Below, in pieces: positions 655-49,857 of a DNA stretch of 52,975 nt. The translations under genes and the position numbers were made by a program. The DNA lies in sequence record NC_010106.1; one strand, given 5' to 3'. Under the pieces are notes generated by a model. The model searched no databases. It was not told the origin of the DNA and was given only the letters and a program-made list of their open reading frames with translations. Position 1 is the stretch's first letter. The number at the start of each line of letters is the position of its first letter. Source of the stretch: Escherichia phage phiEcoM-GJ1.

Positions 655-2601
655 ATGACTACTATCACCACTCAAACTATCAAATCCGTTGTTCCTGCTA
701 TCACTGCTCTGGTATACCGTGCCAAAGAGAAACAGAACTATATGCAGCCTCAGACTTGTGCTATTGCTGCCTTAGCCATCTTCAAGATGATGACCTCTTT
801 CACTCGTGATGATGTTATCCCAGCCATTGCAATGGTTGAACTGGCTTCTGCTTCTATTGCTGATGCCAACCGTTATAACAACGACCTGAAAGCAATGCAC
901 TATGTTGACCCAGCTATCAACCTGATTGGTCTGGCTAAGCACTTTGGCTTCATCACCATGAACGAAGACAAATCGTTCCAGATGACTGATGCATGGATTG
1001 AACTGGTTACAACCAAAGATACCTCAGTTCCATTCACTGAGAAGGTAACAACTGAATCTCGTCGCAAGCCTTTCGTCAAAGGTGGCAAAGTTAAGCCATC
1101 CAAGACTCTGAAAGCTGCAATCGAATTCCTGCAAGATACTGCATATCACGTTGATGCTACAATGGTTAAGGTTATCTCTTCCATGATTGAGCAACGTACT
1201 TATGGTGGCTTGCAGATGCCAGAGGCAATCCAGACTGAACTCCATGTTTGGAACAATGCTGTAGCAATGGTTGGTCAGGACACTCTGTTCTCTGACTACT
1301 TTGCTGATAACCGTGGTCGTCTGTATCATGTTGCTTGTGCTGGTCCTAACCCACAATCATCTGACTTTGCTCGTTGCTTGTATTCCCACAATGTTGAGAA
1401 CACTGTGAGCAAGTTTAATGATGATGGTTCAACAACTCTGGCATACAACATGTTCATGCTTGAGCTGGAAGATATTGCTGGTGGAGACTGGACTTCTGCT
1501 AAACGTTTAACTTATGTTGCACAGAATCCTGTTGGTTCTTTGGCTCGTATGATGAACATGGACAAATCTGAACGTCCTTCTAAGCCATTCACTTATGTTC
1601 GATTAGCTCTGGATTGGTTCAAGTTTGAGACTACTGGTGAGTGCGATTCTCGCGTAGGCTTTGGCTTAGATGCTAAATGTTCTGGTACTCAATATCTGGC
1701 ATTCATTGCTGGTAACATGGAAATGGCTCGTGCAACAGGTCTGGTTGATTCTGAGACTAAGGCATCTGACCCATACCAGTTATCTCTTCGTGAACTGTTA
1801 AAGTTATTAGACCGTTCTTCAATGAAACCATCTCCTGAAATTATGGATGAATTCTTGAATCCGAAAGCTGGTCGTAAGTTTATCAAAACTCCATACATGG
1901 CTATCCAATATGGTGGTGGTAAAGCTGCATTAACTGGTTCTTCTGACTTTATCTCCTACATGACAGAAGCTCTCCAGATTCCTATGGAGAAAGCTGAGGC
2001 ATTTGCTGAACTGTGTGTAGAAGCAATCCATAACGCATTGGGTGAGAAGATTAACATGTTCATCGAGAAAGCTGCTGATGCTGCATACACTCGTTGTGTT
2101 GAACTTGGTAAAGAGTATATCACATATAAGCACACTGATGGCCAAGTTGTAATGAAGCCTTGCTTCCCATCTCGTGACATTTGTGATGCTTTCTCCATTC
2201 GCATTGATTCAGCAACTCGTGTAATCTTTGGCGTAATGTTGGAGGGTGAAGAGAAACCTTGGACCATTCGTGAGTCCAATCCAACTAAAGAAGAATTCAA
2301 ACGTACCTTCGTTGTTAACTACATTCAAGGTATTGATGCATTGGTTGCTCGTACTGTTGCAATCAAAGCTAAAGAAGCTGGTCTTCGTGGCTTTACTTCA
2401 ATTCACGATTGTTTCCGTTGCTGCTTAGCTGATGCTCCTCTCATGATGGAAGTAATTCGTTCTGCTTATATTGAAATCTTTGTTAATAATAATCAGTTTG
2501 AATCTCTGTCTAAGCAACTTGGTGGCATCAACATGTATCACGAGAACATCGTAACAGAAGAGCTTCTGATGAGCGAACACGCTTACTACTTCTGTCAATA
2601 A
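655..2601 (+). CDS. single-subunit T7-like DNA-dependent RNA polymerase, compact form
   Basis: 648-aa ORF with GGAG RBS; palm motifs in T7 RNAP order: GLDAKCSGTQ (motif A-like), KTPYMAIQYGGG (motif B-like), SIHDCFR (motif C-like); about 200 aa shorter at the N-terminus than T7 RNAP. Confidence 0.85.
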   Translation: MTTITTQTIKSVVPAITALVYRAKEKQNYMQPQTCAIAALAIFKMMTSFTRDDVIPAIAMVELASASIADANRYNNDLKAMHYVDPAINLIGLAKHFGFITMNEDKSFQMTDAWIELVTTKDTSVPFTEKVTTESRRKPFVKGGKVKPSKTLKAAIEFLQDTAYHVDATMVKVISSMIEQRTYGGLQMPEAIQTELHVWNNAVAMVGQDTLFSDYFADNRGRLYHVACAGPNPQSSDFARCLYSHNVENTVSKFNDDGSTTLAYNMFMLELEDIAGGDWTSAKRLTYVAQNPVGSLARMMNMDKSERPSKPFTYVRLALDWFKFETTGECDSRVGFGLDAKCSGTQYLAFIAGNMEMARATGLVDSETKASDPYQLSLRELLKLLDRSSMKPSPEIMDEFLNPKAGRKFIKTPYMAIQYGGGKAALTGSSDFISYMTEALQIPMEKAEAFAELCVEAIHNALGEKINMFIEKAADAAYTRCVELGKEYITYKHTDGQVVMKPCFPSRDICDAFSIRIDSATRVIFGVMLEGEEKPWTIRESNPTKEEFKRTFVVNYIQGIDALVARTVAIKAKEAGLRGFTSIHDCFRCCLADAPLMMEVIRSAYIEIFVNNNQFESLSKQLGGINMYHENIVTEELLMSEHAYYFCQ

Positions 2602-2848: not shown

Positions 2849-2860
2849 TTCCTAATATTC

Positions 2861-2889
2861 GGACAATATTGTTGCATGTAATATTGTCC
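2861..2889. repeat. perfect 10-bp inverted repeat GGACAATATT-N9-AATATTGTCC
   Basis: Arms 2861-2870 and 2880-2889 flank GTTGCATGT; lies just upstream of a motif copy. Confidence 0.6.
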
Positions 2890-3849
2890 CGATATTCGAC
2901 ATTAGTTGGATGTGAAGTAACAGAATACGGAGAAGTATTACTCACGTTGTTCGTGGGTTTCCGCATGTCATGTTGAAATCATTCTAGAAACATTTCAGCA
3001 TGTCAACTAAACACACAGCGTTGTAATGATGTGGCAATCATTGAACTCCCTGTCTTTGGCCGGACAAAGTTCCAGCAACCATGTGTGAAGTAGGATTATC
3101 ATTCGAAACTGTTCTTCCGGTGTTGAACTAACAACAGAACATCGTGTTAGCCATCTTGATTAAGTTACAAGAAAGTCAACAAACCTAAGCATGTTCACTT
3201 GTTTCAATATTGCTCCATCTCCTATTATCAAGGCCCACCCACAAGCCGGGAGATAACTTTGGCAAGACTGGAACTTTTGGACATGCTTCTTTCTTTCAAT
3301 CAGAATTCGAAAGAAGAGAAGAGTCGGAGCAAAGCCGCGAAACTAATCCCGTAGCCCGCCCCGATTTTGAGCAACAAATATTGTGACAATTGCGTCGCAG
3401 TATGGCATGTAAATATTGCTACAAATTGGCATGTTGGAATGTGGCAGAATTGTTAGAGGACTAATCACCTCGAAGATACAATCGTCTACCAATCTGGCAT
3501 GTTAATTTTGTAACAGTATTTGTGCCAATTTCGCATGTAATAAATGTATCAATATTCACCCAATATTCTTGCAACCCGCATGAATACTGGCTTCCAGCCA
3601 AGCGAAGGCTTTATCATCGCATGTAATATTGTGACAATATTGGGATAAAACCCCTTTATTTATTTCTGTAGTTTTGTATTAAATGGACGGTTTTCCGTAC
3701 CTGTTGCGCCACTTCTTGATGTGCCAAATACATTCCAAGATAGGAGCAAACCTGTAATTAATGATGCATGTTTAATTGTGACAAAATTCGTCTATTTGGC
3801 AGATGAGTTAGTTGCAATTAAGCATGTTCATTTATCATTAGTTGCATGT
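2874..3849. repeat. array of about 12 GCATGT-containing degenerate direct repeats in a ~1.1-kb ORF-free region
   Basis: GCATGT at 2874, 2963, 2998, 3189, 3405, 3429, 3497, 3533, 3619, 3766, 3822, 3844, mostly followed by A/T-rich (T)AAT(A/T)TTGT; second palindrome AATATTGTGACAATATT at 3625-3641. Confidence 0.55.
2899..2919 (+). promoter_or_regulatory. conserved motif ACATTAGTTGGATGTGAAG (candidate phage-RNAP promoter)
   Basis: Near-consensus copy; core ATTAGTTGGATGTGA. Confidence 0.45.
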
Positions 3850-3855
3850 GAATAA
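3835..3855 (+). promoter_or_regulatory. conserved motif copy ATTAGTTGCATGTGAATAAG
   Basis: About 190 bp upstream of the first small early gene at 4046. Confidence 0.45.
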
Positions 3856-4045
3856 GACCAAATCTCTGTAAATTCTGCTGAAATTGTGTGACAGATTTTA
3901 GAGAGATTATGTCTCCAAGCTAATCATTGTAGTTTTTCGGCACTTGCTGTGTCACATACTCCCTGCAACTTTAAGGTGGATTAAGGTAATACAAGACCTC
4001 CACAATCGTTCTGTAGGGAGTTTTCTTTTAACTTTGGAGAATAAA

Positions 4046-7005: not shown

Positions 7006-7045
7006 ATTAACAAGGAGCATTCATTGAGTGTTCCTGATTAATTCA

Positions 7046-7066
7046 ACATTAGTTGGATGTGAGAGA
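7046..7066 (+). promoter_or_regulatory. conserved motif ACATTAGTTGGATGTGAGAG (candidate phage-RNAP promoter)
   Basis: 88 bp upstream of the 7136 gene. Confidence 0.45.
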
Positions 7067-7135: not shown

Positions 7136-7516
7136 ATGGCACAATATTCAGACGTAAACACTGGCATCATCGGTTCCAATGGCTTCAAGAAAGACCCAAA
7201 ACATCCTGACGTTCGTGGACGTATTAACGTTGACGGAATCTGGTATTGGGTGTCTGGTTGGAACAAGCAAGCCAATGGTAATGAATTTACCTCGCTGGCA
7301 CTCACCATCATGACTCAAGAACAAGTTGATGAAATGATGCGTAAGCGTGAAGAGAAAGCTAAAGCCAAAGCTCAACCTCAAGCCGCCGCACAACAGCAAC
7401 GTCAGCAACCTTCTGCTGCACAGCAACAGCAAGCACCTACTCAACAGCAAGCTCCGCAGTCGTCTGGGTATAACCCAAATGAGCCGCAGGACTTTGACTC
7501 AGACATACCTTTCTAA
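7136..7516 (+). CDS. small protein with Q/A-rich linker and SSB-like C-terminal tip DFDSDIPF
   Basis: 126-aa ORF; the last 8 residues match the conserved acidic tail ending in IPF of bacterial SSB (E. coli SSB ends DFDDDIPF); the N-terminal ~70 aa are Trp-rich (IWYWVSGW). Confidence 0.6.
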   Translation: MAQYSDVNTGIIGSNGFKKDPKHPDVRGRINVDGIWYWVSGWNKQANGNEFTSLALTIMTQEQVDEMMRKREEKAKAKAQPQAAAQQQRQQPSAAQQQQAPTQQQAPQSSGYNPNEPQDFDSDIPF

Positions 7517-7637
7517 TTGGAGATGCCCTATGAAAATTTTATGTTTTATAGGGCTACATAATTGGGAAATTTCACATGAAAACGATTATGTAACCTTTTG
7601 GGTGTGCAGACACTGTTCAGCAATGCGTGAGGAATAT

Positions 7638-8328
7638 CATGGCAAATAGATTTGTTGAAATACCTGCCAATTTGGTCAAACCTGGTGATGTATTGGTTTA
7701 CGGCAACAGAGAATACCGGATTGAAAACATCCTACGGTTTAGTGATGCAGTTCAGTTGCAATATTCTGGTGGGTACTACAATTTTGAATTTGGCCGCATA
7801 GTCAAAGTGCTCGACAGGCCACCAGCTTTGGAAACTCCAACAGCAACATTCAACACACAGATAACACCAGTATTTCTTCCTTACGGGGAAGCAGTGAAAC
7901 CATTCTCAGATGAAGAGGATGTTAAAGGTGCTGATGTGGAAGTTGGCGATGTTATCTGGTTTAAGGGTAATTGGGCAACTGTTACAAATGTGTACAAGCA
8001 TCCAAATTCGCCATACAATAAAGTCAATATTGACCATGATGGTGTAAAAGGTTTGCAAGTGCGCCTGACATTAACTGGAACTTATTCGAGAAAGGTAAGA
8101 GCAGTAATGGAAACATTAAATATTCAAAATGCAATCGAAGCACAACGTATTCTTCTGCAAAAGCTGGAGCAAATGTTGGAATTAACCCAGCTTGCACCAA
8201 CAGGAGATGGCAAGATTGCAATTGGCAACTGTAACATTCGCGTGGACAAGGCATCAATCACTAAAGCCGCACGCGATGAAATGAAAGCTGCCGCAAGCAA
8301 ATCCGCAGAGCTTATCAAGAAGCTGTAA
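7638..8328 (+). CDS. hypothetical protein
   Basis: Long ORF; start chosen at ATG 7638 (MANRFVEI...) after GAGG. Confidence 0.55.
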
Positions 8329-8383
8329 TTAACAGAGGTCATTCCACTTCGAGTGGCCTCGATTAATTATCACTGGAGCATTT

Positions 8384-8734
8384 ATGAAAACTTTATACAT
8401 TGCACTTACAATTTTGTTTGGAGTATTCGCATTCAAATCAGAAGCGTCTGTTCGCAGCTTTCAGTGTGGCGGGTACAAAATGTCCGTTGAAACAATCACA
8501 ATGAGCCAGCCACTCATTGTAACAATTTCTTTGCACGAAGGTACTTGGATTGAGATTCCAGATAATGGAAATCCTAACCCAATGTCAACAGTGTTCTACA
8601 ATACACAGAGCAGTAAGCTGGCCTTAGTTGGTGTTGACGCTGAGGAACGTTTGGTGCTACAGATTTATCGTGACATTGACTTCTTTCATGCCAAATTTCC
8701 ATTGTTATCAACCTATTGTAAGGAAGTTAAATGA
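8384..8734 (+). CDS. secreted (signal-peptide) hypothetical protein
   Basis: N-terminus MKTLYIALTILFGVFAFKSEA has a basic n-region, hydrophobic core and A-x-A-like cleavage site; GGAG RBS. Confidence 0.55.
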   Translation: MKTLYIALTILFGVFAFKSEASVRSFQCGGYKMSVETITMSQPLIVTISLHEGTWIEIPDNGNPNPMSTVFYNTQSSKLALVGVDAEERLVLQIYRDIDFFHAKFPLLSTYCKEVK

Positions 8735-8964
8735 CGTCATCCGAATTTACCATTGATGGAGTTCAATACCTGCTGGAATCCGATTGCGAATATCGCCAAT
8801 GGGCAGTAATTCACGACCGAGTTGTAAAATACTTGGAACGTGTGGGTAAGGAAACTTCCAAATCCATGTTGTTTGAGGCAACAGTTCTAGGAACAACCTC
8901 AATCAATAAGGAATTAGTATCCTTCAAATTAACCATTCACCCTAGTGGAAATAATTTTCAATGA
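8731..8964 (+). CDS. hypothetical protein
   Basis: 77-aa ORF, translationally coupled. Confidence 0.5.
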   Translation: MTSSEFTIDGVQYLLESDCEYRQWAVIHDRVVKYLERVGKETSKSMLFEATVLGTTSINKELVSFKLTIHPSGNNFQ

Positions 8965-9236
8965 TTTCGATAGACCAAGTTCCTGTTGAACTAAGTAAGG
9001 CAAAAGGAAAGTTGGACAATGCCAAATCCGACTTGTCGGCCTTCGATTTAAATGCTCCAGTTGATAAAGTTAAAGTTTTCATCGACTGTATTAACGGATG
9101 GGTGCTTGTTGAGCATGCAGTCCTTAGAGCACTACTTGTTGACGAAGTTAACAAAGCTCAGGCAGCATTTGACGAGCTTGATGAACTCAACACACTGTTG
9201 AACAACACTTTAAACGATGCATTAAAGGGTAAATAA
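8961..9236 (+). CDS. hypothetical protein
   Basis: 91-aa ORF, translationally coupled. Confidence 0.5.
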   Translation: MISIDQVPVELSKAKGKLDNAKSDLSAFDLNAPVDKVKVFIDCINGWVLVEHAVLRALLVDEVNKAQAAFDELDELNTLLNNTLNDALKGK

Positions 9237-9631
9237 TGAATGTTAAGCTCGGCCAACGTTCTTTAGACCGACTTAAGGGAGTAAATCCTCCATTAGTTGC
9301 AGTTTTCAAACGGGCATGTGAAACCATGCCCTTTGATGTAACTGTTCTGGAGGGTTTACGCTCTTATGAACGTCAACAAGAGCTTTTAAAGCAGGGTGCA
9401 ACCAAAGTTTCTATTAGCCGACACATGTCAGGCAATGCTTTAGACATTGCACCATATCCAATTGACTGGAATGACCTCGAACGATTCCAAATTGTGGCTG
9501 AACACATGTTCAAAGCTGCAAAAGAGCTTGGAATTGTCATCCGATGGGGTGGAACATGGGAACGTTCATTCACTAAGCCAGTGAAATGGGCCAAGTTCCT
9601 TGATGCACCACACTTCGAACTTCCAGCATAA
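9236..9631 (+). CDS. peptidase M15-family protein (VanY/L-Ala-D-Glu peptidase-like), possible cell-wall hydrolase
   Basis: Zn-ligand pattern typical of M15 peptidases: SRHMSGNALDI and DAPHFEL; 131 aa; no signal peptide. Confidence 0.7.
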   Translation: MNVKLGQRSLDRLKGVNPPLVAVFKRACETMPFDVTVLEGLRSYERQQELLKQGATKVSISRHMSGNALDIAPYPIDWNDLERFQIVAEHMFKAAKELGIVIRWGGTWERSFTKPVKWAKFLDAPHFELPA

Positions 9632-9651
9632 CTTCATCAATGGAGCATCCG

Positions 9652-10197
9652 ATGGAAAACCAAATTATTCAAGCAGTAACACAGCTTAAGTCCTGGCGTA
9701 GAGATGAAACCTTATTGGTTCGTTTCTACACAGGCGAAAACAATTCTAAATTTGAAGATGTGTGGATTGATGGACTGTCTTGGCGTCTTTATGATTTCGA
9801 CATGTCAGAATATTTGCATGAAGATTATGGCATCGAGTATCCAGAAACAGGTACTTATGACATTCTCGAATCAAGTGAAGCAGATGTTACAGAAGTTTGC
9901 TTTGTTGATGGGTTATTCAGCATTCGCAGATATGACAAATTCAACGAACTGCTTACTGACACTGACTTGGATATAATTCTTGCTGCATTCCGTAGCGATG
10001 AAATTGACATTTTCACTGTTTACGACTTGAACGACATGTTCATCACACGTTGCGACTCAATTGTGGACTACTTCAAGCAAGACGATGGGATAGAAGTTCC
10101 TGAAAACCTGCGTCCGTACATTGATTGGGATGCGATTGCAAGAGATTACGGAAGTGATTACATCTTCTCTGAGGGAGTATTGTTCCGCAATGCGTGA
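9652..10197 (+). CDS. ArdA-like acidic protein, candidate anti-restriction DNA mimic
   Basis: Very acidic ~180-aa protein; C-terminal segment EVPENLRPYIDWDAIARDYGSDYIFSEGVLF resembles the conserved ArdA C-terminal region (recalled from memory); early-region position. Confidence 0.5.
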   Translation: MENQIIQAVTQLKSWRRDETLLVRFYTGENNSKFEDVWIDGLSWRLYDFDMSEYLHEDYGIEYPETGTYDILESSEADVTEVCFVDGLFSIRRYDKFNELLTDTDLDIILAAFRSDEIDIFTVYDLNDMFITRCDSIVDYFKQDDGIEVPENLRPYIDWDAIARDYGSDYIFSEGVLFRNA

Positions 10198-10429
10198 TTT
10201 AGCAATTAACGAAATTGAGGCTGGATTGATTGTTCACCACCAGCCTCGTAACACTTTCTATCGTATTCTTGGGCCTACAAAGATTAAAACCCACCCCGGA
10301 GATTGGGTAGACGGGTTTGCTTACCAGGAAGTGAAGAAATATGGGAATCACACTTTCTTGAGTATTGATTCTTCTACTATTTACACACGACCGAAAGAGC
10401 TATTCGACTCAGATTGGAAAACACTATAG
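10193..10429 (+). CDS. hypothetical protein
   Basis: In-frame internal ATG overlapping the previous stop (ATGCGTGA); the track ORF starts earlier at 10121. Confidence 0.4.
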   Translation, partial: RDLAINEIEAGLIVHHQPRNTFYRILGPTKIKTHPGDWVDGFAYQEVKKYGNHTFLSIDSSTIYTRPKELFDSDWKTL

Positions 10430-11028: not shown

Positions 11029-11430
11029 ATGATAGTAACTCCAATAAAAGTTAAGAAGAGCAAATTATCTTTACAAGAGAGGACACTAAGAAGCACTATC
11101 AGAGGTATAACAGCAAATAGGATTTCATCTGGAGATATCCAGGCAAAGCCTTGTAGGGTGTGTGGAAGTACATTTGTTGAGGCCCACCATTGGGATTACA
11201 GAACATACAAAGTAATCTTCCTTTGTGCCAAACACCACGTCGAGTGGCATAACCGACAGCGGTACTTCGAGCATCTTAACACAGCGTATGGCATCAAATT
11301 CGTGCACAGACCCAAGCCATTCCGGTTTAAATGGGTGTGGGTGAAGAACCATATGGGCTATCGCCCGAGGCCGTCAGAGACGATGCCAAGCGTCATACGG
11401 CGTGGTCAAAAATTAATCAAGGTAATCTGA
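11029..11430 (+). CDS. HNH endonuclease
   Basis: CRVCGSTFVEAHHWDYRTYKVIFLCAKHHVEWHN: Cys pairs and His cluster typical of HNH nucleases; AAGGAG RBS. Confidence 0.75.
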   Translation: MIVTPIKVKKSKLSLQERTLRSTIRGITANRISSGDIQAKPCRVCGSTFVEAHHWDYRTYKVIFLCAKHHVEWHNRQRYFEHLNTAYGIKFVHRPKPFRFKWVWVKNHMGYRPRPSETMPSVIRRGQKLIKVI

Positions 11431-48460: not shown

Positions 48461-49857
48461 TGGCGATTCGTCCTAAACTGAACCGAGTCTGGACTTCAAA
48501 CAACTCTGTCGCAAGACGTGACCCAGGTGATGCGAAATATCTCCAGGGTTGGGTTGCAGAGATTCCAACTTACCAGGTTCTTAACTACCTACAATATAAG
48601 ATTGACACCACAATGCTTGCCCAAGCGGAGCGGGGAATCTTTGAGTGGGGTGATGATGTAAGTTATGGCGTTGGTAGTTTGGCTTGGGACGAAACAAACA
48701 AAACGATTTATGTTTGTACTGCAACCAACCCAAGTAAAACCTTACGCCCAAGTGCCAACTCTGCACAGTGGAGTCCAAGCTCCATCCAAGTTTCTCGTGC
48801 AAATTACGACTCAATTGTTGCAGCAATCAATGCACATATTTCAGACGTAACTACAAACCCACACCGAGTAACTGCTGCACAAATTGGTGCATATAACAAA
48901 GCAGAGCTGAATGCAATTGTTGCAAACTATCGTGCAATGGTTTTAGCACACACCACAGATTACAACAACCCACACCAACTCACTGCAACTCAGGTTGGTG
49001 CTGTTCCTGTAACTGGTGGTGCATACACTGGTGAAGTTACTTTCACAACCGTGTATCTGAATGATTCCAAGACTGCCCAGATTGTTAATGACGGTGGTCT
49101 GTATCTTCGCAATGGTAGCTACTATCTTGGAATCAGCGGGACCACAGGAAATCCAGAGGCAGGAACTGCTGCAAGCAAGTCCCGGATAGTCACAGAACTC
49201 ACCTTCCCAGACTTGAAAGCTGCACAAGAGGCTGAATATGCGGTAGAAGCGCCAGACTATGAAATGGCACTAATAGGTTCTGTAAACATACTTCGTGGCA
49301 CAGGAACATTCAGTACCGGAAGCTCCGAGCCTATGTACTTGGCATCATCTGGTGATGCCCTAACATTCGACAGCTCACCAACCAGCCCATCACAATCATT
49401 CAACGCCTCTTCACAACTTCCTGCTGGCTCGAGTATGACGGTCTGTGCCGATGTTATGAGGGTGTCACAGTCTGATACAAGTGATGGCAACTGGCAGCTA
49501 AGTTTCGGCACCGCAGATTTCAATATCACCATTGGGTACAATGGGTATACGACCATTAGGTACAGGAACCTCGCAGGAAATATTGCTACAATATTGCAGG
49601 GTGTAATCTCTCAAGATTTGAAAACTGTAGGTGTGTGGAACAGGGTGTCGGCAACACTTTCTGGAAGCACTATGAAGGTGTTTGTAAACGGTGCACTGCT
49701 ATTCTCCATAGAGCAAGAAGTGGGTGTTGCAGTGGGGAGAGCGCCATTTATAACTAAATGGGCTATGGTTGGGGCTACCACAAACTCTAGAATGTCTATT
49801 AGGTCTTTTAGGTTGTGGAACTCGGCACTAACAGATAAACAGATTTCAACTTTATAG
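48460..49857 (+). CDS. tail fibre/receptor-binding protein with C-terminal lectin-like (LamG/concanavalin-like) region
   Basis: Start ATG 48460 after GAGG; the C-terminal ~200 aa are a beta-sandwich-type Ser/Thr/Gly-rich sequence ending ...RSFRLWNSALTDKQIS. Confidence 0.5.
   Translation: MAIRPKLNRVWTSNNSVARRDPGDAKYLQGWVAEIPTYQVLNYLQYKIDTTMLAQAERGIFEWGDDVSYGVGSLAWDETNKTIYVCTATNPSKTLRPSANSAQWSPSSIQVSRANYDSIVAAINAHISDVTTNPHRVTAAQIGAYNKAELNAIVANYRAMVLAHTTDYNNPHQLTATQVGAVPVTGGAYTGEVTFTTVYLNDSKTAQIVNDGGLYLRNGSYYLGISGTTGNPEAGTAASKSRIVTELTFPDLKAAQEAEYAVEAPDYEMALIGSVNILRGTGTFSTGSSEPMYLASSGDALTFDSSPTSPSQSFNASSQLPAGSSMTVCADVMRVSQSDTSDGNWQLSFGTADFNITIGYNGYTTIRYRNLAGNIATILQGVISQDLKTVGVWNRVSATLSGSTMKVFVNGALLFSIEQEVGVAVGRAPFITKWAMVGATTNSRMSIRSFRLWNSALTDKQISTL

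Follow-up and report, generated by a model that had tools for sequence, protein, structure and literature searches.

The question raised by gene 22 of Escherichia phage phiEcoM-GJ1 is whether a virulent myovirus carries an ArdA, a protein known mainly as a tool by which type I restriction is evaded by transposons and conjugative plasmids. The window analysed here is the whole stretch of 52,975 nucleotides (NC_010106.1) from this member of the Chaseviridae, and the gene occupies positions 9652..10197 on the + strand, encoding gp22 with 181 aa followed by a stop codon. A preliminary description, made from the letters alone, had reported a highly acidic open reading frame (ORF) with an ArdA-like C-terminus. 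Both observations were confirmed: the ORF is real, the product has a pI of 4.05, and the match to ArdA is beyond chance. We consider it very probable that gp22 is a homolog of the ArdA family. With less certainty, sequence comparison indicates that gp22 is probably a divergent full-length ArdA, an acidic DNA mimic acting against type I enzymes.

The enclosing ORF spans 9640..10197 (+). Its in-frame ATG at 9640 is without a Shine-Dalgarno site, whereas the sequence GGAG at 9642..9645 (+) ends 6 nt before the ATG at 9652; owing to this correct spacing the latter start is favoured. A start at the equivalent of 9652 was found in 27 of 27 family members (alignment A1). The nearest DNA relatives of phiEcoM-GJ1 are Escherichia and Yersinia phages of the genus Carltongylesvirus (Chaseviridae, Cleopatravirinae). 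Homologues of gp22 formed 48 clusters at 90% identity, being 58-100% identical to gp22, and full-length tblastn matches were present in 49 phage records, with remoter orthologs in other Chaseviridae genera. The occurrence of full-length orthologs, 58-85% identical, across some 45 related phage genomes identifies gp22 as a real, conserved gene. At 100% identity its product matches the database entry 'putative antirestriction protein [Escherichia phage phiEcoM-GJ1]', and the paper on phage ST32 lists phiEcoM-GJ1 gp22, 181 aa, as "antirestriction protein" (PMC6266442). The label has been public from the deposition of the phage genome onward, which makes the present finding a rediscovery of that annotation. 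What the analysis adds is a firmer basis, in that the label rests on more than a weak BLAST match and covers the whole protein, not the tail alone.

The C-terminal segment that first suggested ArdA, VPENLRPYIDWDAIARDY...FSEG, begins at residue 149 of gp22. Pfam ArdA (PF07275) was the best-matching family (E 8e-4), with residues 105-171 aligned to profile positions 88-146 only (20.4-20.5 bits). The profile search proposed in the preliminary description thus singled out ArdA, but the 20.4 bits are under the gathering score of 27, a cut-off set by curators for scoring single sequences against a single profile and not a biological property, so that the answer is borderline. A tblastn search of gp22 against 72,556 plasmids gave 2,322 weak matches (best E 0.02, residues 126-180), and all 25 of the matches listed sit on ArdA-type antirestriction genes. 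For profile-profile comparison by hhalign, canonical ArdAs, one of them from a Klebsiella plasmid, were combined into a reference alignment, which recovers the Tn916 ArdA structure 2W82 with an E of 8e-17. The narrow Carltongylesvirus family profile matched these canonical ArdAs with 98.7% probability (E 2.5e-16), residues 104-180 corresponding to ArdA 88-168. The Pfam, plasmid and hhalign results agree that the C-terminal resemblance is more than chance, and homology to canonical ArdA sequences is statistically significant.

Relatives of gp22 extend the match. An exhaustive hmmsearch with the family profile against 1.84 billion representative proteins returned 39 proteins, 34 of which match Pfam ArdA. 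Among the relatives that can be aligned to gp22 over the full length, 11 reach 28-48 bits and thereby exceed the ArdA gathering score, as does the syntenic ortholog of the Sabourvirus phage 4HA13 by itself with 33.8 bits. In the intermediate proteins P0069, P0059 and P0067 the match to the Pfam ArdA profile already starts at positions 17-25. Some of the remaining proteins recovered in this search are canonical ArdAs that score 101-110 bits and show the classic N-terminal hairpin. When the intermediates were added to the profile, the hhalign match rose to 99.4% (E 1.5e-21, 135 columns) and ran collinearly from residues 37-180 along ArdA 26-168. PHROG 14321 matches gp22 over its full length (E 1e-62); this group is, however, essentially the phage group of phiEcoM-GJ1 itself, and its label is inherited. 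PADLOC reported nothing for gp22 or the neighbouring genes, and phmmer with gp22 together with hmmsearch with the family profile against PDB sequences gave only insignificant matches to PriL and bacterioferritin.

The fold predicted for gp22 is that of a full-length ArdA. Published ArdA is elongated and built from three domains, the first a three-stranded sheet with a short helix, the second helical, and the third a three-stranded sheet with three helices (PMC2731889). The predicted order of elements in gp22, namely strands and short helices, a helical segment, and a three-stranded sheet with helices ending in a strand, agrees with this description. Residues 1-103 (9652..9960, +) are predicted to contain an extra N-terminal helix, followed by the equivalents of domain 1 (three strands and short helices) and domain 2 (helical), with highly diverged sequence. 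Residues 104-181 (9961..10194, +) are the equivalent of domain 3, the C-terminal dimerisation domain, for which the sequence homology is firm; the predicted local distance difference test (pLDDT) score is about 90 in this region in both predicted models. Between 131 and 137 residues of gp22 superpose on full-length ArdA, where both models are predictions, 2W82 predates the training of AlphaFold, and the second alignment includes canonical ArdAs. Since domain 3 comprises only about 60 residues, a structural match of this length must take in domains 1 and 2 as well.

The residues that define ArdA are largely retained in domain 3. The anti-restriction motif corresponds to positions 126-140 of Tn916 ArdA at the dimer interface, where Y137 and I138 are essential and D139 and D146 take part in hydrogen bonding (PMC2731889). 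Its equivalent in gp22 is DGIEVPENLRPYIDW at 10084..10128 (+), which contains P150, L153, Y156, I157 and D158. The Tn916 residues Y137, I138, D139, D146, P131 and L134 map to Y156, I157, D158, D165, P150 and L153 of gp22, respectively. Most of these positions do not vary within the family, among them Y156, D165 and P150, which are invariant across the 28 aligned members. Tn916 L127 is not conserved, being G146 in gp22. A VF motif in the region of the last strand and F91 in domain 2 are also essential in ArdA (PMC2731889). The VF motif (I160, F161 in Tn916) is represented by L177 and F178 at 10180..10185 (+), and its F is kept in 27 of 28 family members and in all 20 intermediates.

That gp22 is highly acidic, as the preliminary description had it, was borne out by a pI of 4.05 and a net charge of -26 for the 181-aa product (-27 for the 185-aa form). 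With -0.146 charges per residue it is the most acidic among the 73 long + strand ORFs of the window, the next reaching -0.111. The net charge is close to those of Tn916 ArdA (-31) and the Klebsiella plasmid ArdA (-30), and the means were -25.6 in the phage family, -23.4 in the intermediates and -29.7 in the canonical ArdAs. The strongly negative charge (pI about 4) that characterizes ArdA is thus a property of the whole family and is kept across subfamily groups only ~25% identical. Of 41 acidic positions, 15 are common to gp22 and the canonical ArdAs.

Inhibition of type I enzymes is a property of all characterised ArdAs (PMC2731889), and the C-terminal domain suffices by itself for anti-restriction and anti-modification activity (PMC12548430), which makes ArdA-type DNA mimicry the best-supported mechanism for gp22. 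As an elongated, three-domain and strongly acidic protein, gp22 would form dimers, bind type I enzymes in the manner of an ArdA-type DNA mimic, and thereby relieve type I restriction. Its gene may be transcribed by the RNA polymerase of the phage itself, either ahead of replication or while replication is under way. We infer an anti-restriction activity on these grounds. The genome contains type I sites at chance frequency (EcoKI, n = 4; EcoBI, n = 9; EcoAI, n = 8; EcoR124I, n = 12); as no avoidance of sites is evident, the genome is a potential substrate and protection would be useful.

Among known systems the closest is ArdA itself (PF07275), as represented by Tn916 Orf18 (2W82) and by plasmids ColIb-P9, R64 and pKM101. 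gp22 differs from these in being carried by a virulent myovirus rather than by a conjugative plasmid or transposon, in being only about 18% identical to Tn916 ArdA, in its extra N-terminal helix with an SWRR patch, in having twice as many basic residues, and in its downstream partner gp23, to which it is putatively translationally coupled. gp22 resembles Ocr, the T7 gene 0.3 protein, in being phage-encoded, highly acidic and presumably a dimeric DNA mimic directed against type I restriction-modification (R-M) systems, and phiEcoM-GJ1 resembles T7 in carrying its own single-subunit RNA polymerase. The arrangement differs, however, as ocr is the first T7 gene to enter and is transcribed by the host polymerase, and no sequence or fold similarity between gp22 and Ocr was found. 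The stretch of gp22 with firm homology is the counterpart of the sArdC region, the dimer-interface domain, but sArdC and sArdN are about one third of the length of full ArdA (PMC12548430), whereas gp22 has equivalents of all three domains and, with 181 aa, superposes on full-length ArdA rather than being a C-terminal domain only. ArdB/KlcA share the functional label of gp22 and target type I systems in vivo (PMC2836571); they differ in having another fold, in not being DNA mimics and in giving no Pfam or structural match. In plasmid pc15-k, the gene adjoining ardA and labelled 'antirestriction protein' is obviously different in sequence. The ArdA in the accessory-gene screens of Silas et al. 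was compared with gp22 and is a different protein, the plasmid-type WP_000129958.1.

Phage therapy and biocontrol are contemplated uses for some members of this family of virulent myoviruses, and the conservation of an ArdA homolog in it would help to explain their host range on restriction-proficient strains. If the proposed function is true, gp22 would represent a second, independent phage solution beside T7 Ocr. With the annotation already in place the remaining value is modest, and lies in a putative ArdA clade of phages in which the N-terminal half has been remodelled and a partner gene is conserved.

A number of results weigh against gp22 being a full-length ArdA active on type I enzymes. 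Taken alone, gp22 stays below the Pfam threshold for ArdA membership (20.4 versus 27 bits), an NCBIfam search with gp22 gave no match, Foldseek found nothing for gp22, and the family profile missed the solved ArdA 2W82 in the hmmsearch of PDB sequences. By hhalign the N-terminal and central part alone was not significant (P 0.059, probability 0.9%; reversed control 0.68), so homology is proven by sequence for the C-terminal domain and only suggested for the rest; we claim it weakly for residues 37-103 and not for residues 1-36. Domains 1-2 are very diverged from canonical ArdA. The equivalent of F91 could not be placed, the alignment of domain 2 being unreliable; the aromatic F113 lies nearby. 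Residues 2-14 form the extra predicted helix, whose SWRR patch (9691-9702, +) is invariant within Carltongylesvirus and not beyond, and gp22 has 15 basic residues where the reference ArdAs have 6-7. Other genes precede gp22 in entry and in expression, and timely protection is not assured, since a myovirus presumably delivers its genome quickly. The existence of two disrupted metagenomic copies, P0062 and P0050, described below, implies that gp22 has apparently been lost in some relatives, unless these are assembly errors. Literature searches returned no experiments with gp22 or with its orthologs in the Chaseviridae.

The main alternative that these results bring forward is an ArdA-derived DNA mimic whose principal target lies beyond classical type I R-M, either in another defence that binds DNA, such as BREX or type III R-M, or in a regulator or DNA-binding protein of the host, with specificity set by the diverged N-terminal and central domains. 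We regard it as unlikely. It would account for the N-terminal 100 residues having diverged past sequence recognition, for the helix with its invariant SWRR patch and for the surplus of basic residues over canonical ArdAs. It also fits a locus behind a candidate phage promoter and beside the SSB and endolysin genes, unlike the immediate-early ocr, the specificities of sArdN and sArdC (PMC12548430), and the further targets and differing specificities of ArdA and Ocr mimics given in three reports (PMC13300388, PMC10746416, PMC10149784). However, the dimer-interface motif, the VF motif, the overall fold and the charge are all ArdA-like, all characterised ArdAs inhibit type I enzymes, type I sites worth protecting are present in the genome, and nothing positive speaks for another target. 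Less probable again is a Chaseviridae clade that has kept the dimerisation domain and the charge of ArdA, has remodelled domains 1-2 and gained the helix with the basic SWRR patch as well as gp23, and is thereby either retargeted to some other defence system or DNA-binding protein or able to evade decoy sensors of the Ronin or PARIS type, by which canonical DNA mimics are recognised.

The failure of the N-terminal part to reach significance by itself, together with the restriction of the narrow-profile alignment to residues 104-180 and of the Pfam match to profile positions 88-146, would also be expected if only the C-terminal ~78 residues were ArdA-derived, as an sArdC-like module fused to an unrelated N-terminal domain; stand-alone ArdA C-terminal domains do exist and are active (PMC12548430). 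This fusion is improbable in view of the broader profile, which carries a collinear alignment to residue 37, at a conserved W-x-D strand, of P0069, P0059 and P0067 with their matches from profile positions 17-25 on, and of the predicted secondary-structure order, which fits the published domains 1-3. A role outside defence, with the ArdA similarity as a relic, draws on the labels of certain orthologs, which read 'replication inhibitor protein' for Pel53 and 'tail fiber protein' for MLP1 as well as for four PYps phages. Such a role is very hard to credit: the labels come without stated evidence and conflict with each other, no tail-protein similarity was found in Pfam, PHROGs or PDB, the structural module begins only beyond about 27 kb, far from gp22, and conservation acts both on the acidity and on the residues of the ArdA interface. 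Both annotations were rejected, as no similarity supports them, and the conflicting labels in related genomes should be corrected. Across MLP1, PYps3T/4T/16T/23T, Pel53, Ecp_YSF and Faunus the labels of gp22 orthologs are inconsistent and vary between 'hypothetical protein', 'tail fiber protein' and 'replication inhibitor protein'. Phage Pel53, the recorded host of which is Staphylococcus hyicus, carries a gene 79% identical to gp22. On balance a full-length ArdA remains the preferred reading of gp22, and the first interpretation, partly supported by these results, was essentially correct.

The preliminary description had further placed the gene in the early region. All long ORFs of phiEcoM-GJ1 are on the + strand, and gp22 is the 22nd from the left end. 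Gene 1 (655..2601) encodes the single-subunit RNA polymerase and is followed by ~35 small genes up to the replication module near 16.3 kb, the position of which was set by comparison with related phages in which thymidylate synthase, primase/helicase and DNA polymerase genes are annotated. A ~23-nt motif, TCTGAAACATTAGTTGGATGTGA, occurs in 13 copies against 2.0 expected, a number reached in none of 100 shuffles. The + strand has 11 of the 13 copies, and most of these occupy gaps that precede blocks of genes; + strand copies lie at 572, 2900, 3836, 7047, 10499, 10640, 13125, 21899, 26984 and 41983, and 10 copies were aligned (repeat families D2-D4). Their length, strand bias and placement suggest that these repeats are promoters for the phage single-subunit RNA polymerase. 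The nearest copy upstream of gp22, (A)ACATTAGTTGGATGTG(A) at 7039..7063 (+), is a candidate promoter of this kind and heads the gene block 7136..10429, which consists of SSB (7136), three further genes, a peptidase, gp22 and gp23. A scan of 2.5-17 kb for sigma-70 promoters found fewer sites than in shuffles and was uninformative, and terminator-like hairpins were not enriched. With its block behind a candidate phage promoter and sigma-70-like sites unenriched, gp22 is plausibly an early or middle gene that depends on the phage polymerase. Literature searches on transcription timing or restriction sensitivity in the Chaseviridae yielded nothing usable. One copy of the ~23-nt motif precedes the RNA polymerase gene itself.

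The gene for gp23 (79 aa, phrog_2652) lies at 10190..10429 (+), and its ATG overlaps the stop codon of gp22 (ATGCGTGA), so that the two may be translationally coupled. Homologues of gp23 have 23 invariant columns, and in three Chaseviridae genera they always overlap the 3′ end of the ArdA-like gene; counterparts are found at 3533-3742 in locus L004, 3518-3784 in L005 and 9021-9260 in L001. The order of peptidase, small ORF, ArdA-like gene and overlapping small gene is also kept in Faunusvirus and Sabourvirus. The small ORF of ~90 aa between the peptidase and ArdA-like genes is present in PYps16N, Mangalitsa, ST32, Faunus and 4HA13 (L001 8214-8498; L002 6414-6692; L004 2718-2987; L005 2653-2934) and absent in phiEcoM-GJ1 (9631..9652). 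In the metagenomic P0062, gp22 residues 1-36 are fused in frame to gp23 residues 13-78, the ArdA-like body being nearly all deleted, and the metagenomic P0050 is a frameshifted copy.

The gene adjoining gp22 on the left, at 9236..9631 (+), encodes a T5-type L-Ala-D-Glu peptidase (Peptidase_M15_4, phrog_465 endolysin). Its position in the left-arm block of small genes, away from the structural and lysis genes, is unusual for an endolysin. Downstream of gp23, in a variable stretch, a 133-aa ORF at 11029..11430 (+) matches the phage endonuclease family phrog_2340 (E 9e-10) and probably encodes an HNH-type homing endonuclease. After the RNA polymerase gene, a ~1.1-kb stretch (2850..3940) is without any ORF of at least 60 aa and carries three copies of a 30-nt repeat (2867, 3612 and 3759). 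The near-palindromic 17-mer AATATTGCTACAATATT occurs there at 3625-3641 and also near both genome ends, at 91-107 and 49579-49595; the stretch may be a regulatory or terminal-repeat-associated region.
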